From Plasmodiophora brassicae (Eukaryota): a stretch of DNA of 64,000 bases. Below, piece by piece: positions 11,110 through 46,631 of this stretch; the first letter of the stretch is position 1; each line of letters starts with the position of its first letter. The notes under the pieces are model-generated. The model did not search any database. It saw only the letters and a program-made list of their open reading frames with translations, and was not told where the DNA came from. The translations under genes were made by a program, and so were the position numbers. The DNA lies in the NCBI GenBank assembly GCA_036867785.1, contig CP145420.1:806001-870000 (forward strand). The letters run 5' to 3'.

Positions 11110-12118
11110 TGGTGATGGTCCATCCTCATTGTTTGGACGTCGGTGGTGGTGGTGACGATGGGCGTGTGCGATGCCTTGCCAAACGGCTGGCTGCTGTGGA
11201 GACGGATATCAGTGTAGGCCGACGGCTTGCGTGTTCGTGTCTGGTATCGCCCACAGCGTATCGCTCGCCGGGGATGACCTGCGGGCAGAACGGTGGGTGC
11301 ACTGTTCAGTGCCCATCCAGTAGCACGCCATGCGGTGCTCAGTGCTTAACTAAAAGTGGCACGTGCTGCGATAACGGAAGTATGGGAGCGTTGTTTCGCA
11401 CAGGATGAGCGTACCTGGTAATCGAATATCGCCGGCTATTACTGCCCCGTAGGGCGTGCATGCGTACCATCAGGGACATGTTCAGTCGTTCAGGGACCGT
11501 TAACGTGCGGTCCAGGAGCTGCTCAATGCTGCAAGTCGAACGGTTGTGCGTCCCTTCTCTGAATTCTGAGTGGTCGTAGCCTGAACAGATCAGTGCGGGA
11601 TCGATTTTCAATGCTGTGCCGGGACCTGCAACTCAACTGACAAACAATGTTGTGCGTCCAGCGGTATGAATAGCGATAGTCAGAAGCTCCTGACATTAAC
11701 AATGGTTGACTAGGTCAGTGCTCGGTAAAACTCGCAGGGATGCGATCCCGATCAAGTTTGTATCGGCAAGCAGTCACGCCTGGCCCTCACCGACATCCTA
11801 ATCGCCTGCGTCGCCTGAGCCTCACTGACATCCTATCGTCTGCGTTCTATCGACGTCTGTCGCTGTAGCAATTGCTTACCTGTGCGCCACCTGGCGAACG
11901 AAATAGAAGAAACCGGGCGCACCCCCGCCTTTGAATTAATTGCCAAGTACTGCCCGATGTACCCATTGCAATCGGTCATTGAACGTGGTAAGGACTGCAA
12001 GAAGTGCAGCCAAGAAGATGGTCAGCCTGTCTCCGCGTCCATTCCCTCCGTTGGCGGCGTCATAGCCGTCGGCGCCAGCGCCGACAACCCGCATAACTCC
12101 GCTCGCTTCCTGAAGTGA
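11110..12118 (+). CDS. Probable multi-exon cysteine-rich protein (CC-containing modules); structure unresolved, possibly degenerate
   Basis: Short plus-strand segments read GCCGDGYQC, TPCGAQCLTKSGTCCDNG, CGPGAAQCCKSNG, QCCAGTCNSTDKQCC and GCDPDQVC, separated by intron-like sequence. Confidence 0.4.
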
Positions 12119-13237
12119 CGACCCCGTCTCCTGAGCCGACAGAAAGCATTGCCTCGTTTGCCCTAGGAAGTAGCACGTGTGCAGGTGCTCGCGGAACCAG
12201 CTGGGCGACCGGAGACCCGGGCAACGGGACCTGCGCACCAGGAGCAGGTGACCGGATGGGATCGGTGCACCAAACGCAGGTGAAGCAGACGGGGCCGGCG
12301 GGATTGGTGCAACAGGGTAATTGGCGAAGTCGGGTTGGACGCTGTCGCTGGAGACTGTGGTGCTTCGCCCAGGGCAGACGTTCTGTTCCAGCCGGGTACG
12401 TTGCCGGCCAAGTAGGGGCACTACACGATGCACACGCATAGCCAGGACGAGATCAAGGGACGACGAGGATTAAGGCGATGTTGTCGGCGACTGCGTCAAG
12501 GTCTCGAAGTGCTCGCACTTAAAGGGCCTCGATCTGGGTTCAACTTCAAAGGGCAAGGGCACAGCAGGCGCTGAGAGGATCGGATCTCCACTCGAATTGC
12601 GACGTCCCGTCGACGTCTATCCCAGCCCACCAATATACACGTTCTCGCGCCTGCCCAGATCAGGGCAGGGCACGGTCGCCAGCACCTGACGAGGCTTTCA
12701 CACAGGACGGCGCCGTCGCCGCCTGCGGTCGACGGCGATGCCACCGCAGGTGACGCGTCGGCGTGTGTCCGATCAGGAGGCCTCTGTTGACTAGGGCCCG
12801 CTGGAAGCAGAGTACCGCCGGACGCTCGGTTTCGTCTTCATCGACGTGGACCCGGCGGCGCAGGACGAAGACGTCGACTGGGTCCATGTTGGCAGAGTCG
12901 GCCAGGTGCCTCCGAAACCTCCGCTGACGTTCGACGACGTTCTTGCCCTCATTGATGCCGTGCTTCGGCGAGTAGGTGGATCTGGACTTTCACTCAGTGG
13001 AACGTCCGCGCGACGGCTGGGTCGGCGATGGTCGCGAAGCGTCGTCGTCGAGTCGAGAAAACGAACGCAGTGGACACCCAGCACGGCGCACAGGTTTCAG
13101 CAATCAGATTAAGTGTTGTCAACTTCGCCGCCGTGCCCGTGTCGGGTGAGATTGGCCGGGTGCCCCCACGACGATGATAACGATCTATTACACCTACCAT
13201 GTAGCGGTCTGCTCTATCGTCCAGTGAGCGCGCTAGC

Positions 13238-14059
13238 ACCTGGAATTTAGGGCCCCGATCACCACTGGGGCGATCAGGGCCGATGGGATGGCGTGACGTA
13301 CGCCCGTGGCGACTGGTCAGTGGCAGGACTGGCACCGAAGTCCCTCATTTCGGAGATCTCGCGCGACATTGGCGATGGCGGCGAACCACGCGCCTTTCAT
13401 GCGCACGATCACTGGTTCTAATGGCCGATTCAGTGTGGCCGTATCCGGATACTGACGTCGGGATCGTCTCTGTGCCGGCGGCGCGCTCGCTGCAGCAGGG
13501 CATGTCGGCCGTCGGCGGCGGCCTACGCGGGAAGCGATCACGGTTGGGTTGGTGTCGTTCCTCTTGCCGTTGACGATTCGGTCGACTGCCGATATTTCTT
13601 CCACAACGCCCGCGTGATGAGGACGCTGAGACAAGTTACGCCGGCTATGATTGCCACCGTCCGGAGGGTGTCGGAGTATGCTGGTAGGTGGAGGTGGAGG
13701 TGTAGATGGAGATTGTGCTGAACCTCGACCTTGACTCGGGCGCCGTCCTTGGCAGCTCCGGCGACGGCTACGAGGCCGTCGCCGACGGCCGACATGCCCT
13801 GCTGCAGCGAGCGCGCCGCCGGCACAGAGACGATCCCGACGTCAGCATCCGGATACGGCCACACTGAATCGGCCATTAGAACCAGTGATCGTGCGCATGA
13901 AAGGCGCGTGGTTCGCCGCCATTGCCAATGTCGCGCGAGATCTCCGAAATGCAGGACTTCGGCGCCAGTCCTGCCACTGACCAGTCGCCACGGGCGTACG
14001 GCACGCCATCCCATCGGCGCTGATCGCCCCAGTGGTGATCGGGGCCCTAAATTCCAGGT
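13238..14059. repeat. Inverted repeat IR1: 287-bp arms (13238-13524 and 13773-14059)
   Basis: ACCTGGAATTTAGGGCCCCGATC...GGCCT and its reverse complement, with a few substitutions. Confidence 0.95.
13538..13876 (-). CDS. Small single-TM protein, 'MADSVxPYPD' family copy B (112 aa)
   Basis: MADSVWPYPDADVGIVSVPAARSLQQGMSAVGDGL...TVAIIAGVTCLSVLITRALWKK. Homologous reading frames recur five more times in the window. Confidence 0.6.
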   Translation of the reverse strand: MADSVWPYPDADVGIVSVPAARSLQQGMSAVGDGLVAVAGAAKDGARVKVEVQHNLHLHLHLHLPAYSDTLRTVAIIAGVTCLSVLITRALWKKYRQSTESSTARGTTPTQP

Positions 14060-14220
14060 CGCACTGTGCGCGTTCACTGCCCCGCAGTCCGCGGGGTCCA
14101 GGCAGGCGGCAGGCCGCCGCGCTATACAAGGCGCTCCACGCCATGGTGCGCACCCAACGACGAGTGGGTCGGCGGACGGGCATATCGGCGCCGCAAGTTG
14201 ATGACACGTAGTGACATGAA

Positions 14221-15138
14221 ATGGTGGCCGCACCGTATCGGATCGGGGTCGACCTGGGCGGTACCAAGACCGAGGTCGTCGTGGTCGACGGCGCCGGGGT
14301 CGAGCACGTTCGCCGTCGAGTCCCTAGTGCACGCGACGCCTACGATGGGACGCTATCGGTCATCAGGGACCTGGTTGCCGACGCCGAACGCGACTGCCGG
14401 GCGGCGACGGGCGCCCCGATCGGTGTCGGCATACCCGGGTCGATCAGCAAGCGCACGGGCCGCGTCAAGAACGCCAACTCGACGTGGCTGAACCGGCGGC
14501 CGCTCGCTGCCGACCTGAAGGCGTTGTTCCCCGGACGGGACGTCGTCGTTGCGAACGACGCGAACTGCCTGGCGTTGAGTGAGGCGACAGACGGGGCCGG
14601 CGCTGGATACGATCTCGTATTCGCTGCCATTCTGGGTACAGGATGCGGTGCCGGCCTAGCGTACCGACGACAGGTACTGCCGGGCGCCAACGGTGTCGCT
14701 GGCGAATGGGGCCATAACCCGTTGCCATGGGACGACGACGCCGTTCCCCGCCAATGCTACTGTGGGCGCACGAATTGCATTGAAATGTTCCTGTCGGGAC
14801 CAGCCCTGACAGAAACGTACGCCACGATGACGGCTGGCGCTCGCCTGTCCGCTAAGGACATTGTCCAACTGGCAGACGATCGCCCAGACAGCGACGCTGG
14901 ACGAGCGCTGGACGCGTACCTGGACGCACTGACCAAGTCTCTGGCATCGGTGATCAACGTGGTCGACCCGGACGCGATCGTCCTGGGTGGTGGCATGTCC
15001 AATTGCAGAGCGATCTACGATCGGGTGCCGGCCAGCCTCGAGCGGTTCGTCTTCGGCGGCGAATGTGAGACCCCGGTGCGACCTGCCCGGCATGGTGATT
15101 CCAGTGGCGTTCGTGGAGCCGCATGGTTGAACCCGTAG
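14221..15138 (+). CDS. mak: ROK-family sugar kinase, bacterial Mak (manno/fructokinase)-like, intronless
   Basis: RIGVDLGGTKTEV, VGIPGSIS..TGRVKNANSTWLN, ANDANCLALSEATDGAG, ILGTGCGAG, AGEWGHNPLPW, CYCG...CIE, DPDAIVLGGGMSN, HGDSSGVRGAAWL. Confidence 0.92.
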   Translation: MVAAPYRIGVDLGGTKTEVVVVDGAGVEHVRRRVPSARDAYDGTLSVIRDLVADAERDCRAATGAPIGVGIPGSISKRTGRVKNANSTWLNRRPLAADLKALFPGRDVVVANDANCLALSEATDGAGAGYDLVFAAILGTGCGAGLAYRRQVLPGANGVAGEWGHNPLPWDDDAVPRQCYCGRTNCIEMFLSGPALTETYATMTAGARLSAKDIVQLADDRPDSDAGRALDAYLDALTKSLASVINVVDPDAIVLGGGMSNCRAIYDRVPASLERFVFGGECETPVRPARHGDSSGVRGAAWLNP

Positions 15139-15475
15139 TAGGACGAACAATATACAATGCGAATGGCTCACAGATGAAATGTACGTGGAAAGCGGTCACG
15201 GTTGCGTGCCGTTGTTCGTGTCGCTCCTCTTGCCGTCGACGAATCGGTCGCGAATCGGCCCGCCTCGAAGTCGGGACGTTGACGACGCGCTCGCGGCCGG
15301 CACCGCATCATTTATCCACAATCGCAGCGAATAACGAGACTATGTCCACAGTGGCAGGCCTGACATCGAAGTCCTGCACTCCCGGGCGATAAACGGTGCC
15401 GCTGGCGAATGGCGCCATAACCCGTTGCCATGGGACGACGTCGCCGCTTCCCGCCCGTGCTACTCTGTGCTCATG

Positions 15476-15501
15476 GTGTGTGTGTGTGTGTGTTTGTGTG
15501 T
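15476..15501. repeat. (GT)n microsatellite
   Basis: Direct reading. Confidence 0.9.
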
Positions 15502-15734
15502 GAACGTAGCGCTGCTGCGTCCTGCGTATGGAACCGTCTGTATTATACGCTGTATTATACACACCTGTATAATACGCGTATAATACACATTTCATCGCCG
15601 GAGAGTGTATACTACAAATCCATAGTCCTGCGGCCTGAACCCGCGGACAGCAGCTGGGCAGCGAACGCGCGCGCGTGTACAGTGCGACCTGGAATTTAGG
15701 GGCCCCGACCACCACTGGCGAGGCTACGGGATGC

Positions 15735-16310
15735 CCGGCAGTCGCGTTCCGTTGGCAACCAGATCCCTGATGACCGATAGCGTCCCATCGTAGGCGTCGC
15801 GTGCACTAGGGACTCGACGGCGAACGTGCTCGACCCCGGCGCCGTCGACCACGGTCTTGGTACCGCCCAGGTCGACCCCGGTGCGGCCACCATATCATGT
15901 CACTGCGTGTCATCCACTTGCGACGTCGATGTGCCCGTCCGCCGACCCACTCGTCGTCGGGTGCTCACCATGAGCACCTGCCTGGACCCGCGGACAGCAC
16001 GGCGGTGAACGCGTACAGTGCGACCTGGAGTTTAGGGCCCCGAACACCACTGGGGCGAGAGCTGACGGGATGGCGTGCCGTACGCCCGTGGCGGCTGGTC
16101 AGTGGCAGGACTGGCACTGAAGTCCTGCATTTCGGAGATGTCGCGTGACATTGGCGATGGCGGCGAACCACGCGCCTTTCATGCGCAGCACCACAGGTGC
16201 TAATGGCCGATTCAGTGTTGCCGTATCCGGATGCTGACGTCGGGATCGTCTCAGAGCCGGCGGCGCGCTCGCTGCAGGAAGGGATGTCGGCCGTCGGCGG
16301 CGGCCTTGTT
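15735..16310. repeat. Inverted, internally deleted copy of ~13770-14405 (mak 5' end, intergenic region and small-ORF 5' part)
   Basis: For example GATAGCGTCCCATCGTAGGCGTCGCGTGCACTAGGGACTCGACGGCGAACGTGCTCGACCCCGGCGCCGTCGACCAC is the reverse complement of mak ~14281-14357. Confidence 0.9.
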
Positions 16311-16463
16311 GCCATCGCGGATTCTGTCAAGGGTGGCGTCCGCATTGACCTACACCTGCAACTACCACCGGCGAAAGAAACTTTGTGCATGGCAGCGATC
16401 ATCGCCGGGGTTACCCTGCTCTACGTCATAATCTCGCGCTCAGTGACGAAGACGTATGACTAA
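16203..16463 (+). CDS. Small single-TM protein, 'MADSVxPYPD' family copy C (86 aa)
   Basis: MADSVLPYPDADVGIVSEPAARSLQEGMSAVGGGLVAIADSVKGGVRIDLHLQLPPAKETLCMAAIIAGVTLLYVIISRSVTKTYD. Confidence 0.6.
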   Translation: MADSVLPYPDADVGIVSEPAARSLQEGMSAVGGGLVAIADSVKGGVRIDLHLQLPPAKETLCMAAIIAGVTLLYVIISRSVTKTYD

Positions 16464-16557
16464 ACGGAACTGTCCAGCTTTCCTTCTGATCGTCGTCCCG
16501 CGTCCCGGCACAGCTGCCGCTATCAGGCACCAGTTAAAATCGTCGCCGTCCAGGCCT

Positions 16558-16826
16558 TGCACGAATTGCAATGAAACGTTCCTGTCGGGACCACTGTCAG
16601 AAACGTACGCCACGATGACGGCTGGCGCTCCCCTGTCCGCTAAGGACTTTGTTCAACTGGCAGACGATCGCCCAGACAGCGACGCTGGACGAGCGCTGGA
16701 CGCACTGACCAAGTCTTTGGCATCGGTGGTCAACGTGGTCGACTCGGACGCGATCGTCCTGGGTTGTGGCGTGTCCAATTGCACAGCGATCTACGATCGA
16801 GTGCCGGCCAGCCTCGCGCGGTTCGT
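16558..16826 (+). pseudogene. mak internal fragment (copy of ~14768-15050) fused to small-ORF copy D
   Basis: TNCNETFLSGPLSETYATMTAGAPLSAKDFVQLADDRPDSDAGRALDALTKSLASVVNVVDSDAIVLG. Confidence 0.9.
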
Positions 16827-16831
16827 GTTTC

Positions 16832-17782
16832 TTGCCATATCCGGATGTTGACGTCGGAATCGTTTCCGAGCCGGCGGCACAGGCGCTCAAAGACGGCATG
16901 GTACGTGGGCGTCGGCGGCGGCCTCGTTGCCATGGCCGAAGCACTCAAAGGCGGCGTTTGCGTTGACGTCGACGTTCAGCTGCACTTCCCACCGGTCAAG
17001 GAGACGGTGGTGTTCAGGGCCGCGATAGTCACCACGGCTGCAGTTGTCTACGGCGTCGTTTCTCGGGTTCTGTTCAAGAAGTAAAAGAGCTGAGCTTTCC
17101 TTCTGGCCATCGTTCCGCTTCCCGGCGCAGCCACGCACACGACCGCTGACGTCCGTCGCCAGTTAGCATTGTCGCCGGTCGATCCCGGCCGACCGGCCCG
17201 CGTCTTGGCCGTCTCGCCGTCCAGGTGCTCCAACATCACCACCTCAAAACAATTATTTGGTCCGTCGTCATTCTTGTCAGGCTTTGCGAGTCGGTGGATG
17301 CGCTGGCGAATGGGAGCCTCAAGAGCGGCAATCTCATAAGAACGACGGTGGACCAAATTCTCTTGAGGTACTGTGGTGACGTTGGAGCACCTGGACGGCG
17401 AGACGGCCAAGACGCGGGCCGGTCGACCAGGATCTACCGGCGACAGTTTAACTGGCGACGGACGTCAGCGGCCGTGTGTGTGGCTGCGCCGGGAAGCGGA
17501 ACGATGGCCAGAAGGAAAGCTCAGCTCTTTTACTTCTTGAACAGAACCCGAGAAACGACGCCGTAGACAACTGCAGCCGTGGTGACTATCGCGGCCATGA
17601 ACACCACCGTCTCCTTGACCGGTGGGAAGTGCAGCTGAACGTCGACGTCAACGCAAACGCCACCTTTGAGTGCTTCGGCCATGGCAACGAGGCCGCCGCC
17701 GACGCCCACGTACCATGCCGTCTTTGAGCGCCTGTGCCGCCGGCTCGGAAACGATTCCGACGCCAGCATCTGGATACGGCAA
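16832..17782. repeat. Inverted repeat IR2: ~410-bp arms (16832-~17241 and ~17373-17782), carrying small-ORF copies D (+) and E (-)
   Basis: Near-identical ORFs on opposite strands (16887..17138- vs 17476..17727+; 16764..17084+ vs 17530..17769-). Confidence 0.95.
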
Positions 17783-17797
17783 CACCGAATCGGCCAT
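17530..17797 (-). pseudogene. Small-TM family copy E with a 4-nt (GTAC) frameshift or cryptic intron
   Basis: MADSVLPYPDAGVGIVSEPAAQALKDGM, then in another frame VGVGGGLVAMAEALKGGVCVDVDVQLHFPPVKETVVFMAAIVTTAAVVYGVVSRVLFKK. Confidence 0.6.
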
Positions 17798-18031
17798 TAC
17801 AACCAGTGATCGTGCGCATAAACGAGGCATGGTTGTCCGCCATCGTCACGCACGCACGAGATCGAATGGAGGATTTCGATGCCAGCGCTCTCCCATCAAG
17901 TCCTCACGGGCATACCCCCTGTCCCCCTTCCCATCGGCCCTCGCCAGTGGTGATCGGGGCCCTAAATTCCAGGTCGCACTGTACAGACGCGCTTGCGTTC
18001 GCTGCCGTGCTGTCCGCGGGTCCAGACCGCA

Positions 18032-18228
18032 GTGTCCAATTGCAGAGCGATCTACGATCGTCGGGTGCCGGCCAGCCTCGAGCGGTTCGTGCTCGGCGAC
18101 GAATGTGAGACCCCGGTGCGACGGGCCCGGCATGGTGATTCCAGGGGCGTTCGGGGAGCCGCGCATGGCTGGCAGGACCAGAAACATACAATGCCAACGT
18201 CTCACAGATGAATTATACGTGGGAGCGG
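18032..18228 (+). pseudogene. mak 3' fragment plus downstream region (copy of ~14996-15200)
   Basis: SNCRAIYDRRVPASLERFVLGDECETPVRRARHGDSRGVRGAA. Confidence 0.9.
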
Positions 18229-20716
18229 TCACGGTTGTGTGCCGTTGTTCGTGTCGTTCCTCTTGCCGTCGACGATCCGGTCGCGAATCGCCGGGAATCG
18301 GTCCGCCTCGAAGTCGGGATCGTTGAGGACGCGCTCGCGCAGATCGGCGATCAGCTGGGAGCGGTACGCGCGTTCGAGTTCGTCGGTGACGTTACCAGGC
18401 TGGCCGCCAGCACGTTCCACCTGCCGTTCCAGACTGGCTCGCGTGTTCGCCGGCTTATTGCGTTCAGCACGACGCGATTCGGCCAGCTTGCGTCGCTTGC
18501 TGTCGTGGCCCTCGCTGTACGAGTCGCTGAACGGGCGCTGCGGCTCCATGCACCTCTGCAGAGCGGCGTCGCGGTCGATGGTGCGCTGCCATTCCTCAGC
18601 GACGTCGCTGGGCAATTCCCGCATCCAGCGTTCGGTGCCGGATGTGTCCCGCTCGAGCGCCCGTTGCTCCAGGAACCTGGTGTGTGTCCGCATCATCATG
18701 GTGGCGATGGCGCCGCTCGCCATCGTTGACAGGAACGAGAACTCGGAGCCGAGCGATGAGACGCCTTCGGAAACGACACCGCGAAGAAGGGTGCCGACCG
18801 ACGTCGTGCCGTCGTCGAACAGCTGCGACGCCATGTCGACCCATTCACCGACCGCCATTGCCACAGCGGTCTGTAGCGGCTCGGCGAACGGTCGGCTGGG
18901 GCCAGGTTCTGACATGATCAGGTTGACGATGCCCCGAACGTGAGGATGGATCAGGTCGAACGACGTCTCGGCCAGTTCAGCATTGGGTCGCAGGTGGGAC
19001 GCGACAGGCGCCAGCGCCGTCTCGCTGGACAGGTACCCAACCAGCCATGCCGTCAGCTCGTCGGTCAGCTGGCGGCGAGACGCGGGCGTATCGGACCCAG
19101 ACAGGCCGTGCTGAAAGAGCTCCTCGCGCAGCTCGCCGTGAAGGGGCTGAAGGGCAGACCAGTTTCCGGAGAACATCGCGAACAGGTCGGGCATCTGCAG
19201 ACGGGACATGACGCGCGACAGAATGGATTCCACCGGCGACATCTCCTGCGATTCGTCGTGCGATGCAGCCGCCTGCGATGGCATCAACGATGCGGCCAGC
19301 TCTGCAAGGCTGCCACCACCTGAACCTGAGCCAGACGACCCCAGGATCGATGAGACCATCGGCATGAGCTGGGCCATAATATCAACGGCGGGAGCGACGT
19401 TAGATGCGGGCGCACTGGACGATGATGACGGGTGAGGGCGGGCAGGGCTTGGGCTCCGGGGACGACGGTTCGTCGCAGACGGAGGTTGCTGCGGGGCCGC
19501 AGAAGGCGGGGGCGGCGCGTTTCCCTGCTGACCCGACCGTTCCGGTGGTCGTGACGCGTTCTGGGCACGGGAGATCATGCCGGTAACAGACTGGAGCATG
19601 CCCTGCAGATCAATCGCAGGCGCGCCCGATGCGGAACTTGACGACTGCTGAAGAGACGAGCCCAGAGCGGCGAACGCATCTGGAAGGTTGACGACAAACG
19701 GCGGGATGGACGGGTGCGATGACGACGATGACGCATTGAAGGTAATGGATTCCCGGCCAGGCGCGGTGCCCAAACGTGTACCAGACAGGGCAGACGCCAA
19801 GGTGGACAGCGGACCCACCATCTGACTCAGTGCCAGGCCAATCTGGGCGGATTGTTGCTCGGTATTGGCTCGCAGAGTGGGGTCCGTTGCCTGCGATGGG
19901 CGCTGAAGCACTGGCTGCACGTCCTCTAGCATCTGCATCAGGCGGGCCAACAGGGCATGGACCTGCGCCGTCATCTGGCCCAGCGATGGGACGTCGTTCG
20001 CGAGACGAAGGTCGATAACGGCGCTGGGCAACGCAACCGTCCCAGCGACCGTGTTCAGCTGTTGGCGGATCGCGTCGATCGATGCGAGGGCGGGTGTCGC
20101 AGCAGGTACAGGCTGGCGTTGAGGTTGTTGTCGGTGTTGTTGTTGCTGTTGTGAAGATGGTTGTTGTTGTTGCTGTTGCGCAGGCGTCGGTATCGGCGGT
20201 TGCGATGGCTGAGGAATGGGAACGGCACCAAGAGCAATGCCGCCGTCGACGAGGCCGACTCCCGACGAAATCGACGACAGCATGCGGTTGACAATCATGT
20301 TGAAGTCTGGAAGCGCCTGACCACGACGTGTTTCAGTCTAAACATTGACGGGCAATGCGACGTGTTTATACCTCTCCGTCGCCAATGTTCACAGTGGACA
20401 CGAAAACGCCACTGTTCGCGGCTGGCATACCCTGTTGCGCCTGCTGTTGCTGCTGCGGGGGTTCGGTGGCGGGTGCTTCCGATGGGGCATCGTCGGGTCG
20501 GACGACCAGATGCACGACGGAATCGGACGCGACGCCGTACTCGGCCAGCAGGTGGCCGTCCTTCAGGACCTTGCCGCGGAATATGATTCGCTGACGCTCG
20601 GGCGGCGTGCCATTCGCCTCGGCCACCGCCGATTTCAAGGCGTCGACGGGCGTCGACGGGTCGACCTCCAGGTCCACCTGGAACTGCCCGCCGTTCAGCG
20701 TCTTGACGAGCACCAT
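18229..20716 (-). CDS. BAG6: BAG6/BAT3-like protein (N-terminal ubiquitin-like domain, polyQ/Pro-rich middle, C-terminal BAG-similar region), one intron near 20.32-20.37 kb
   Basis: MVLVKTLNGG...QRIIFRGKVLKDGHLLAEYGV...VHLVVR. C-terminal WQRTIDRD...QRPFSDSY...KRRK...YRSQLIADLRERVLNDPDFEADRFP. Confidence 0.8.
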
Positions 20717-44038: not shown

Positions 44039-44294
44039 TCAGACCGGTTGTGATCCGGTGCGAATGGCTCGCAGGTCAGGTAGTTGACGACGAGCTGCCT
44101 CGCATAGTGTCTTCTTGGCCGATGGGGTGTGCAGGTGCAGGTGTAGGTCCATGCGAACGCCGTCCTTGACAGCATCTGTGATGCCAACGAGGTTGTTGTC
44201 AACAGCCGATATACCGTCCAGAGGCCGGCCGGGCCGCGGGCTCAGAGACGGTTCCGACGTGAGCATCCGGATAAGGCAACATTGAATCGGCCAT
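44039..44294 (-). pseudogene. Small-TM family copy F (frameshifted, TM segment lost)
   Basis: MADSMLPYPDAHVGTVSEPAAR, then LDGISAVDNNLVGITDAVKDGVRMDLHLHLHTPSAKKTLC. Confidence 0.7.
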
Positions 44295-44665
44295 TACAAC
44301 CTGTGATCGTTCGCATGAGAGGTGCGTTATTGTTCGCCACCATGAGCACCTGAAGAACACTATACCGCGGAAACGGCGCACGCGCCCTCCCACTCGGTCC
44401 CGTGTGGTAATGCCGCACACCTGTACTCGACTTCCCGACGCTGTTGCCCGGCACAACAAGAGGCTCTGACGACATACAGTGCGGGAAGTCTATAGGCAGT
44501 AAATAAGTCCCGGCTTCTACAGAGGACTTGGGATATCGACATGTAAGGAGTAACGTTGCGCCTTGATGCGAGGAACCGATTGAGCAATGATCCTAAAAGT
44601 AGACCAGTCCCAAATTTTCAGACGCCACCTATTTTTAGAAAATATGCCAGCTGGCCAAACCAGCA

Positions 44666-46631
44666 ATGCCGCGCCCAACTGCGCGATCGAGACGGGCGAT
44701 CGCTGCCGCCACCCGTTCTGTTGCTGCTAGAGACGGCACTGCTGCATCCGCTGCGAGCGTCGCGTTGAGCGATGCCACGCGTGTCCTCAGCGTCCCCGTG
44801 CAGGGAGCGGTGTCGAACAACGCTAGCGTGGCGATCGATATTCCCAAACTGCCTTCTCCCAGTCCATGCCCCGAATCATCATCGACTTCCGAATCAACGT
44901 TGACGTCGGGAAATTCATCCGAGTACTGGAGATCTGCCTGGTCGGACGAGTCCACGGCGGCACTCGTCGATGCAGTGATCGCCAAGGTTCCTTGCCACGA
45001 ACTGCCAAGCGCGGACCATACAAGGGCGACAGCAGGAGCACCAAATTTCGCAAAGCGGCTGCCACGAAAGAGATCAAAAGGTCCAACCGCAGCATTCTGG
45101 ATTTCATCATCCGGACGCCGGCGCCGTCATCTCCAAGTAGACCCGACGACAGCGATGTTTCCAGCATGGACGCGAGCGGGCTTGGCAACGACGACGGATT
45201 CGACCCCAACTTGCCGCCTCCGCTTCAGTGAACCAGGCGAAGAGCCGATGGCACCCTACAATGCAGACTGCGAAGACGACTCTGTAGCGAGCTTGCGCCG
45301 TCGCATGATCACTCAGGCCGACCTGGACGCGGCCAAGTCTGCCATCAAGGCGCAACGCAACCTGCCCAAGATGCCCGACGACCTCAGCGTCCTCCGTTGC
45401 ATTGAGCACTGCTGGTTCAACTTGTTGCGACAGCCGAGCCGGACGCGCGCGCGAGCCGGACGTGACGCCGTTCTTCATATTCTGCAGAAGGGTAGGCTTT
45501 GTTTGCAAGTGGTACCTGCTGTAAATCTACATATGGAATGTGATCCTGTACTTCATAGAATCGACACATGCGGCGCGACGCGTGCGGAACCTGGCGCTGG
45601 AATCTCAGCGCACTGGCGACGTCAACGAGTCCGGTCAGGGTCGCCATGCCAAGCGCAATCGAATAATCGACATTGAGTTTGTTCACGCCGATTGCACGGC
45701 AATGCTTGATGATCGTCGTCGTACTTCAGCGCGCCAGTTCCATGAGTGGCTGAACCAGTACCTGGAGCATCATGGGTCCCAGATGGTCACGGAGCGCACG
45801 TCGCGCAAGTCGCTGACGATCGACCTGGGGTTCCGCCGCCACAGTCGCAAGAAGGGCGTTTATTACAACGGTCACGACCGCGAAGACGTGCAGCAGTACT
45901 TGCACGATGTGTACATTCCTGCGCTGGAGCGGATTGACTCGCGCTGCCGCAAGTACTACGGCGACACCATGGAGGTCGAATTCCAACGCGAGAACATCTC
46001 GCTGCCCGAGATTCGGAAGTTCTTCCATGACGAGTCGATCTTCTACACCGACGACGCCGAGAAGCACTATTATGCTCGAGATGGCGACCAGGTGCTGCGG
46101 AAGAAGAGTCTCGGCCGCTGTTTGCACGTGTCGGACATGATCAGCGAAGATTGCGGGTTCCTCGACCTCCAGAAGGCTCTGTCATCTTCCGGATACGAGC
46201 AGTTACAGCGGGCCGGGACGCTACCAGCCAACACCAAATCACGCGGTATCATCCGTCCTGGCAAGAACGCCGACGGCTGGTGGGACCACGAGCAACTCGT
46301 CAATCAGGTGATCCATTTTATGGATCTGTTCGAGATCGCTTACCCGGGAGAAATCGTCTGCCTGTTCTTCGACTGCTCGGCCAACCACGCGGCGTTCGCC
46401 AAAGACGCGCTTGTGGTGAACCGCATGAACATCAATCCCGGTGGCAAACAGAGCGTTATGCGTGACGCACCGTTTGTGCACAAGTGCAGAGGCATCTGCC
46501 ACTTGACCAGCAAGTACACGTGCCTCAGTCGATGGTGTACGCCAACGATCATGAGCACTCTGTCGGCCTGGCGAAGGGCATGCGCGCCGTTGCGACCGAG
46601 CGCGGATTGGTCGACGTCGACCAATCCGCGC
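44666..46631 (+). pseudogene. IS630/Tc1-like DDE transposase, truncated by fold-back inversion
   Basis: KKGVYYNGHDREDV, FFHDESIFY, LRKKSLGRCLHVSD, IIRPGKNADGWW, FEIAYPG...FFDCSANH, MNINPGGKQSVMRD, AKGMRAVATERGL. Frameshift near 46485. The 5' boundary is approximate. Confidence 0.75.

Follow-up and report, generated by a model that had tools for sequence, protein, structure and literature searches.

Plasmodiophora brassicae is a rhizarian and the clubroot agent of Brassica crops; it is not culturable without its host, and its genes are known largely from sequence. The present analysis concerns a locus between about 13238 and 18340 of a 64,000-nucleotide (nt) stretch of its genome, referred to here as the window (GenBank assembly GCA_036867785.1, contig CP145420.1, positions 806,001 to 870,000 of the forward strand). 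All coordinates count from the first letter of the window. An earlier note, made from the letters alone, had described at this place an unrecognised family of small membrane proteins embedded in long inverted repeats and had proposed a hairpin-controlled or selfish locus. The locus was found to hold a family of small open reading frames (ORFs), an intact sugar kinase gene with several fragments of it, and two near-perfect palindromes. It is probably best read as an amplified and scrambled two-gene cassette whose small genes are orphans coding for tail-anchor-like proteins, the palindromes being by-products of the scrambling and candidate precursors of small interfering RNAs (siRNAs).

The small-gene family and the two-gene cassette

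When the family was compared by tblastn with the whole 64-kb window, exactly six copies were recovered, starting at 13421 (copy A, plus strand), 13876 (B, minus), 16203 (C, plus), 16832 (D, plus), 17797 (E, minus) and 44294 (F, minus). The earlier note had listed the same five starts in the locus and the distant sixth, and its count of two intact and four truncated or frameshifted copies was also correct. The open copies are B (13538-13876, minus strand, 112 amino acids (aa)), the body of which (13525-13772) forms the loop of the first palindrome, and C (16203-16463, plus strand, 86 aa). Copy A has its ATG at 13421 on the plus strand and retains 34-35 family codons; it is cut at the palindrome boundary, 13524, and continues in unrelated sequence up to a stop at 13573. 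Copy D, on the plus strand within 16832-17242, is without the first five codons and is frameshifted after about codon 28, its frame ending at 17084. Copy E, on the minus strand with its ATG at 17797 and its stop at 17530, lies mostly inside 17373-17782 and carries a frameshift identical to that of D. Copy F (44093-44343, minus strand, ATG at 44294) is dispersed, frameshifted after codon 22 and without the hydrophobic segment, and no kinase fragment adjoins it.

Self-BLAST of the window showed that the duplicated unit is not the small ORF alone, on which the earlier note had centred the repeats, but a head-to-head cassette of a small gene and a ROK-family sugar kinase, with four kinase fragments caught in the same scramble. 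The reference unit (13538-15295) consists of B on the minus strand, a shared upstream region of 344 nt between the divergent genes (13877-14220), presumed to hold a bidirectional promoter and the 5' untranslated regions, and the intact kinase on the plus strand (14221-15138, 305 aa). The kinase gave a full-length match to PF00480 (E 4.7e-69), residues 8-303 aligning to profile positions 2-290 of 294. One 90% cluster holds both this kinase and PBRA_007689, labelled 'fructokinase' by the source, and the nearest solved structures of the kinase are bacterial N-acetyl-D-glucosamine kinases (2ap1, 8.9e-50; 4db3, 2.2e-46). From these matches the enzyme appears to be a NagK-like ROK sugar kinase. The spore walls of P. 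brassicae are chitinous, and identity as an N-acetyl-D-glucosamine kinase would fit chitin turnover in such an organism.

With self-BLAST and tblastn together, the inventory of the locus came to six family copies (F being dispersed), one intact kinase and four kinase fragments. A piece encoding kinase aa 157-180 was found by tblastn at 15392-15473 on the plus strand. The inverted 5' fragment, aa 7-57, lies at 15733-15913 on the minus strand and belongs to an inverted cassette copy, 15733-16342, in which this fragment, the upstream region and the start of C match 14402-13737 at 84%. The third fragment, aa 184-278 (16559-16830, plus strand), adjoins copy D directly. The fourth, aa 259-301 with the 3' flank (18032-18339, plus strand), is 84% identical to 14996-15295 and is directly adjoined by 17483-18025, that is, by copy E and its upstream region (17798-18025, homologous to 13877-14101).

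The end of copy B was itself touched by the rearrangements. Its last 18 or so codons (13538-13591) overlie sequence like the kinase 3' flank, 13524-13584 matching 15182-15250 and 18216-18283 at 77-78% in the self-BLAST. Such an overlap is the expected remnant of cassettes that once stood in tandem, and since B ends in it, the long C-terminal tail of B is to all appearances a rearrangement-derived extension.

Copies A, B, C, E and F have in common an out-of-frame ATG that precedes the family ATG by about 47 nt (stretches 13374-13420, 13877-13923, 16156-16202, 17798-17844 and 44295-44343), with a peptide beginning MA(A/D)NHAPFMRTITG. Copy F has an in-frame 3-nt indel in this stretch, and its homology to the other copies starts at that ATG. 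The upstream ATG may open an overlapping upstream ORF that limits translation, the numbers being too small for a test.

Coding constraint and the predicted protein

For coding alignments the frameshifted copies were read in two frames. Substitutions at first, second and third codon positions numbered 27, 20 and 40 between B and C, 24, 13 and 41 between C and E, and 38, 29 and 52 between B and E, with about 97-103 sites each; the upstream DNA showed no such codon-position pattern. The ratio of nonsynonymous to synonymous divergence (dN/dS), calculated by the Nei-Gojobori method (NG86), was 0.43 for B-C, 0.44 for B-E, 0.51 for B-F, 0.34 for C-E, 0.26 for C-F and 0.57 for E-F, and the bootstrap share of values at or above 1 was at most 0.04 in all six pairs. 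The earlier note had judged the substitutions between intact copies to be conservative and had named a dN/dS near 1 among the outcomes that would refute its reading; all six pairs bear the first point out, and the ratio is clearly below 1. Both halves of the ORF are constrained, with the corresponding ratio of uncorrected proportions (pN/pS) between 0.29 and 0.90 in 12 of 12 comparisons (Fisher p < 0.05 in 8 of the 12). Even the old 3' halves, only 55-60% identical, have an excess of substitutions at third positions and a deficit at second positions.

A six-frame control was applied to three pairs. In each of them pN/pS was at its minimum in the sense frame (0.45-0.58), which was free of stops; next came the antisense frame with the same third positions (0.59-0.68, one or two stops), and the other four frames gave 1.02-2.59. 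GC content at the three codon positions was 0.66/0.50/0.71 in B and 0.64/0.45/0.70 in C, similar to the kinase (0.69/0.54/0.74) and to other genes of the window, and the long antisense ORFs had second-position GC of 0.69-0.71. A neutral contrast is available within the locus itself. The 90-codon kinase fragment beside D differs from the intact kinase by 7, 5 and 4 substitutions at the three codon positions (pN/pS 0.79), and this fragment, 16559-16830, looks from its substitutions to be decaying neutrally. The codon-position pattern, the dN/dS values below 1, the six-frame control, the GC pattern and the contrast with the kinase fragment together indicate that the small ORFs are real coding sequence under moderate purifying selection.

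The possibility was considered that there are no genes here, only chance frames in the GC-rich, duplicated intergenic or promoter DNA of the kinase, the palindromes being assembly artefacts. Such a view could draw on the four broken copies out of six, on the lack of an annotation for B in every public annotation found, on the fact that relatives elsewhere were not found by the profile search or among the JGI metagenome contigs, and on antisense ORFs of 135-203 aa that are likewise open. Moreover, conservation is higher in the non-coding DNA upstream than in the ORF, B and C differing at 9% of sites upstream of the ATG and at 29% within the frame. However, it is the sense frame alone that combines the lowest pN/pS with zero stops, the codon-position bias persists in the old 3' halves, and the codon-position GC pattern matches that of other genes in the window. 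In addition, the hydrophobic segment and basic tail are kept in B, C and D/E, the copies are covered by RNA, and independent DNA and RNA contigs bridge the palindrome junctions. Chance frames are a very improbable explanation in the face of these observations, and the small ORFs are treated as genes in what follows.

A profile of the copies was run against 1.84 billion representative proteins and gave five matches, three of which are P. brassicae hypothetical proteins of this locus. The other two, giant repeat proteins of 4096 aa (28 stretches) and 2208 aa (6 stretches), match repeatedly, each time through a Gly/Val/Ala-rich stretch of 25-50 residues, and were rejected as summed low complexity. 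Pfam gave nothing for B and no significant family for C; a Gly_transporter hit of C (E 0.0089, 16.3 bits against a cut-off of 23.5) was set aside as a sub-threshold transmembrane match. An atlas search with B reached a best score of 0.85, below the meaningful level, and none of the 598 pattern matches of copy C in JGI metagenome contigs was confirmed. A word-based homology search with B, in which the 'longer' and 'shorter' length classes were not searched, returned nothing at E up to 1. The same kind of search with C returned only two entries; PBRA_007688 / PBTT_07192 matches C at 99% over 81% of the query. Within the reach of these searches, the family appears to be restricted to P. brassicae.

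The earlier note had called the family unrecognised. This was correct for B, which is absent from the public protein collections, but three of its members, C, D and E, have already been annotated, so that the family is partly annotated and wholly uncharacterised. Copy C appears as PBRA_007688 / PBTT_07192, an 82-aa spliced model with a 13-codon upstream exon and a 58-nt intron (16196-16253) that removes MADSV...IVS, the first 17 codons of C. Copy D appears as PBRA_007687 / PBTT_07193, a 135-aa chimera that joins the kinase fragment to D through a 62-nt intron (16821-16882), and copy E as PBRA_007686, an intact 98-aa allele in the annotation of another isolate. No full-text paper naming the locus tags PBRA_007686-688 or PBTT_07192-07193 was found. 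Literature searches on siRNAs and inverted repeats in P. brassicae found nothing on this locus, and those on orphan genes and tail-anchored proteins gave no paper on genes of the pathogen among the matches listed.

Both predicted introns are unlikely. Each is crossed unspliced by RNA contigs of two runs, although contigs can hide minor isoforms, and within the segment of C that the model treats as intron most changes are synonymous and at third positions (5 of the 6 by which C and E differ). Three public gene models at this locus are thus probably wrong, and one expressed-looking gene, B, is missing from the annotations.

The family proteins share the start MADSV(L/W)PYPDADVGIVS(E/V)PAA, followed by a helix, a short linker of variable length that is rich in His/Leu or Val/Asp repeats, a hydrophobic helix and a basic end (RSVTKTYD, RVLFKK). 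The N-terminus is predicted to be disordered and is acidic and proline-rich. The best 19-residue Kyte-Doolittle window has a mean of 1.98-2.30 and is followed by 8 residues in C, 7 in E (frame-joined) and 21 in B; the next-best non-overlapping window, at residues 24-48 or so, has a mean of 0.96-1.28 and is not N-terminal. An AlphaFold2 model of copy C placed helices at residues 18-43 and 58-85 of 86, with low confidence. The earlier note's picture of a rapidly evolving small transmembrane protein is in keeping with these results, which describe a real, fast-evolving family with one predicted C-terminal transmembrane segment.

Tail-anchored proteins have a single transmembrane segment within roughly 30-40 residues of the C-terminus, and the class includes Sec61-beta, cytochrome b5 and small outer-membrane TOM subunits. 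By its predicted topology the family protein looks tail-anchored, a small (about 86-98 aa), predicted cytosol-facing and membrane-anchored protein. It resembles the class in its small size, in a predicted soluble N-terminal part without an evident hydrophobic segment, and in one predicted hydrophobic helix at the extreme C-terminus with a short basic tail. It differs in that the family has no sequence similarity to any known member in the Pfam, atlas and profile searches, and in the 21-residue tail that B appears to have gained by rearrangement.

Palindromes and their transcription

The first palindrome has arms of 287 nt, 97% complementary, at 13238-13524 (plus) and 13773-14059 (minus), separated by a 248-nt spacer. 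Its left arm holds copy A and 183 nt of the family upstream region, its right arm the first 34-35 codons of B and 183 nt upstream of them. The second palindrome has arms of 334 nt at 16832-17165 and 17449-17782 (98%), extended by 73 nt at 17170-17242 and 17373-17445 (95%), so that in total about 410 nt could pair around a core loop of 130 nt. The left arm with its extension (16832-17242, plus) holds copy D, and the right arm (17373-17782, minus) most of copy E. The inverted pairing and the 290-410 bp of duplex proposed in the earlier note are borne out by these dimensions. Predicted minimum free energies on either strand were -951/-959 and -751/-731 kcal/mol, compared with about -335 to -386 for mononucleotide shuffles (five each).

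X5, an independent DNA run, has a contig (13488-13809) that bridges both inner junctions of the first palindrome. At arm D both the outer and the inner junction are bridged by RNA contigs (16674-17234), as is the passage from the loop into arm E (17228-17762). Furthermore, an independent public annotation holds proteins derived from D and from E that differ from one another. Because DNA and RNA contigs bridge the junctions and the independent annotation separates D from E, the palindromic structure is not an assembly artefact, and the check on locus structure that the earlier note had called for is answered by contigs of independent runs.

A third palindrome was found at 46118-47013, with arms of 368 nt (46118-46485 and 46646-47013), 98% complementary, around a 160-nt spacer. 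Its sequence is unrelated to the family, and it sits inside the ORFs 45702-46892 (plus) and 46239-46994 (minus). The N-terminal part of the former resembles DDE_3 transposase clusters (atlas score 0.93, 179 shared features), which is a lead only; a Pfam search with a limit of E 0.01 gave no match. The presence of three palindromes of like geometry within 64 kb looks like a mutational habit of this genome, a general mode of duplication. The earlier note had likened the palindromes of the locus to a hairpin suppressor, and an unrelated palindrome of the same geometry 28 kb away points instead to the general mode.

Transcription was assessed from contigs of the DNA run X5 and of the RNA runs X15, X16 and X18, which come from three studies, aligned to 12000-20500. 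They belong to 20 runs of nine studies listed as matching, none of them recorded as RNA. The RNA nature of the latter three was judged from the contigs themselves and not from the run records. In each of the three a joint at 20315/20371 leaves out 55 nt (ends CT..AC) through which X5 reads, and depth at 15408-15691 is 0-0.6 in all of them, where X5 has 68.5; because they share these two features and X5 has neither, they were taken to be RNA. The skipped segment, 20316-20370, is a 55-nt GT..AG intron on the minus strand, just upstream of the ATG of a 689-aa low-complexity ORF (18229-20298). Given this position, the gene of that ORF has at least one further 5' exon.

Copy C with its flanks is covered by RNA contigs of all three runs (X16, 15824-16627; X18, 16147-16627; X15, 16223-16580). 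Arm D with both its junctions is covered by contigs of X18 (16674-17234) and X15 (16709-17168). The loop and arm E are covered by an X16 contig (17228-17762) that shows seven differing letters and one inserted letter, all at 17426-17479; the RNA contigs are otherwise identical to the window. Over A and B the binned depth was 22-132 in the three RNA runs. The palindromes, loops included, had lower RNA depth than the neighbouring genes. The region is therefore transcribed, as the earlier note had asked to have checked, with RNA contigs over C, arm D, and the loop with arm E. As the RNA depth is near zero at 15408-15691, the transcript of the kinase ends before the inverted 5' fragment of that gene, and for the same reason a further inverted repeat of 104 nt and 98% identity (14280-14383 and 15750-15853) is not made into a hairpin.

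A joint in X15 from 16580 to 16709 (128 nt) has CT..AC ends on the plus strand, hence GT..AG on the minus strand, and an anchor of only 21 nt. It hints at a spliced minus-strand RNA that comes from the E side through arm D. Another X15 contig is without 51 nt at 16581-16631, between 8-nt direct repeats and with CC..CC ends. This joint, 16580 to 16632, was rejected as an intron, since none of the seven possible cuts has canonical splice ends, and was put down to a deletion variant or a template-switch artefact. Contigs also leave the window sequence at 12661, 12711, 13581 and 17678, the ends at 13581 and 17678 occurring in all four runs, DNA and RNA. The sequences beyond these four loose ends were not found within the window; they may belong to additional partial copies at other places in the genome, or reflect chance overlap with other organisms present in the samples.

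Origin of the locus and RNA silencing

The units of B and C are of mixed age. Their identity switches sharply at about 13737, from 55-60% or so in the 3' half of the ORF to about 90-98% across the 5' half, the region upstream and the kinase's 5' end. The 3' halves have a synonymous divergence of about 0.6, the 5' halves one of 0.20-0.39 and the kinase fragments one of 0.07-0.12. Between palindrome arms the difference is 2-3%, other paralogue pairs being 68-90% identical. Such mixed-age segments suggest gene conversion. Arm E also differs between isolates. In the window its frameshift is that of D; in the other annotation E is intact, differing from D there and at one more residue, and copy D is identical in both annotations.

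The simplest reading of these patterns would be that of old paralogues whose kinase-proximal parts were repeatedly overwritten by ectopic recombination or gene conversion, including conversion between the palindrome arms. Old duplications would first have given the B-, C- and D/E-type paralogues, whose 3' halves are now about 60% diverged synonymously. The kinase-proximal parts would then have been reshuffled by gene conversion, by deletions and by later, partial duplications in inverted orientation, with the result that a single intact kinase remains beside four fragments, and that of the small genes two are intact (three in another isolate) and four dead. The two near-perfect palindromes would have remained as by-products of this reshuffling, presumably formed by fold-back or template-switch duplication.

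A 2026 report on small RNAs (sRNAs) of P. brassicae (PMC13547706) bears on what these palindromes may do. It describes 21-nt, phased sRNAs with a 5'-C bias, two functional Argonautes, and PbDRL, a Drosha-like RNase III that cuts long double-stranded RNA (dsRNA). The organism is stated there to have no Dicer and no RNA-dependent RNA polymerase (RdRP), and the origin of the siRNA precursors 'remains unclear'. The report's catalogue counts 234 microRNA (miRNA) and 78,890 siRNA entries, its sRNA loci are mostly intergenic or in transposable elements, and its Fig. 2G presents a palindromic region that yields miRNAs, with 21-nt small RNAs (PMC13547706). That case is alike in organism and in its palindromic source, and the text of the report makes no mention of the present locus (PMC13547706). 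Because the host has Argonautes and a Drosha-like RNase III and no RdRP (PMC13547706), the transcribed palindromes of the locus, with stems of 290-410 bp, would be credible siRNA precursors.

Fold-back transcripts would likely be cut into 21-nt siRNAs acting on the family itself. The arms of the first palindrome contain the 5' end of B, and 29-35 of their 21-mers occur exactly in C and its upstream region, so its siRNAs would be expected to act on B and C. The arms of the second match the intact E allele annotated in another isolate; their siRNAs would act on D/E-type copies, including that allele. Whether the arms give rise to siRNAs in detectable amounts is, in our estimate, evenly balanced.

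The palindromes might also have been kept by selection as hairpin RNA (hpRNA) genes, whose siRNAs would adjust or shut down expression of the small genes, and perhaps of the kinase. The high identity of the arms, 97-98% as against 68-90% for other paralogue pairs, would be expected in that case; however, recent origin and gene conversion explain it equally well, and arm E differs between isolates. The palindromes, loops included, are covered by RNA contigs, at a depth below that of neighbouring genes, and the 21-nt-anchored X15 joint from 16580 to 16709 hints at a minus-strand transcript through arm D. Against this stand the zero RNA depth at 15408-15691 in three of three runs and the kinase transcript that stops short of the inverted fragment. 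A host competent for RNA interference and without an RdRP would have to draw its dsRNA from hairpins or convergent transcripts (PMC13547706). The 29-35 exact 21-mers that the first palindrome shares with C and its upstream region fit such a role, but no exact 21-mer of arms D and E occurs in B or C. Moreover, the third palindrome has the same geometry in an unrelated transposase-like ORF, which points to a general mutational process. Upkeep by selection is for these reasons unlikely, and we prefer to regard the palindromes as by-products that may nevertheless feed the silencing machinery.

Known systems of this kind are the Drosophila hpRNAs, among them the Nmy and Tmy suppressors of Dox, and the pseudogene endo-siRNAs of mouse oocytes. 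The present locus is like them in having long, near-perfect, inverted partial gene duplications that are transcribed near intact paralogues, and in that dsRNA must come from fold-back or overlapping transcripts. It is unlike them in that the first palindrome includes the 5' end of an intact gene, so that read-through of B would fold on itself, and in that the hairpins are predicted here from arms and RNA contigs, with no drive or toxicity known. The processing enzyme would also be Drosha-like rather than Dicer (PMC13547706).

A wider conjecture, which we consider possible but on the doubtful side, is that palindromes formed by partial duplication, including that at 46118-47013, are the missing RdRP-independent source of dsRNA for a silencing pathway without Dicer. 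The family would then be silenced by the hairpins of its own pseudogenes, and conversion between arms would keep the hairpin and, in some isolates, carry a frameshift into the last E-type gene that was intact. If this is true, isolates would differ in which family members are expressed.

The earlier note had likened the locus to a toxin or meiotic driver, here the small membrane protein, checked by a matching hairpin suppressor. The resemblance is a formal one: the family is young, turns over fast, is multi-copy, has inverted pseudogenes and is polymorphic between isolates for an intact copy. No similarity to a known toxin, driver or antidote was seen in Pfam, in the atlas search (0.85) or in the profile search, which returned this locus only, and both halves of the ORF have a dN/dS below 1, which gives no hint of an arms race. 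In 64 kb the family occupies one locus, with one dead copy dispersed from it, which is not proliferation, and the duplicated unit includes an ordinary metabolic kinase. With dN/dS at 0.26-0.57 and four of six copies dead, the proposal found no support; such an element is extremely improbable, and the sequence gives no sign of a selfish element.

Several observations weigh against the reading of the locus as a scrambled cassette with orphan tail-anchor-like genes and siRNA-yielding palindromes. The step from fold-back transcript to siRNA is one that we infer. The arms of the second palindrome share no exact 21-mer with B or C, and because of this it would be unable to silence the intact copies of the window by perfect match. 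No RNA piece over B is among the contig pieces listed, and the depth there may partly stem from a contig that continues outside the window, at the loose end 13581 seen in all four runs. No RNA contig spans both arms of either palindrome, and the contigs carry neither strand nor level. The word-based searches are leaky, since the query with B missed relatives that are present in the same collection, and the statement that the family has no relatives consequently rests mainly on the profile search. The public models disagree with the start of C adopted here, splicing out its first 17 codons, and the structure model is poor (mean predicted local distance difference test score, pLDDT, 56.5). Finally, with only two of six copies open and the C-terminus of B rearranged, the family may be heading for loss.

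The locus is not exceptional, small orphan membrane proteins being common and inverted duplications of pseudogenes likewise. It offers a worked example of the birth, reshuffling and loss of an orphan family in this parasite, and the intact and frameshifted alleles of E provide a natural contrast between isolates. Furthermore, this one 64-kb window has three long, near-perfect palindromes, RNA contigs covering two of them, which suggest a concrete source of dsRNA that can be tested directly.

Elsewhere in the window, Pfam matches were obtained for WW/FF, UCH, RAP and PPR-DYW proteins. Together with the 55-nt spliced intron they mark the DNA as eukaryotic, and the kinase and the PPR-DYW protein, which share 90% clusters with named P. 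brassicae proteins, identify the species. The PPR-DYW protein is encoded at 57999-60362, a PPR protein of 787 aa with a C-terminal DYW deaminase domain (PF14432, E 6e-23). It belongs to the 90% cluster of PBRA_007664, whose public models are 749 aa long. To our knowledge, DYW-type editing factors are uncommon outside land plants.

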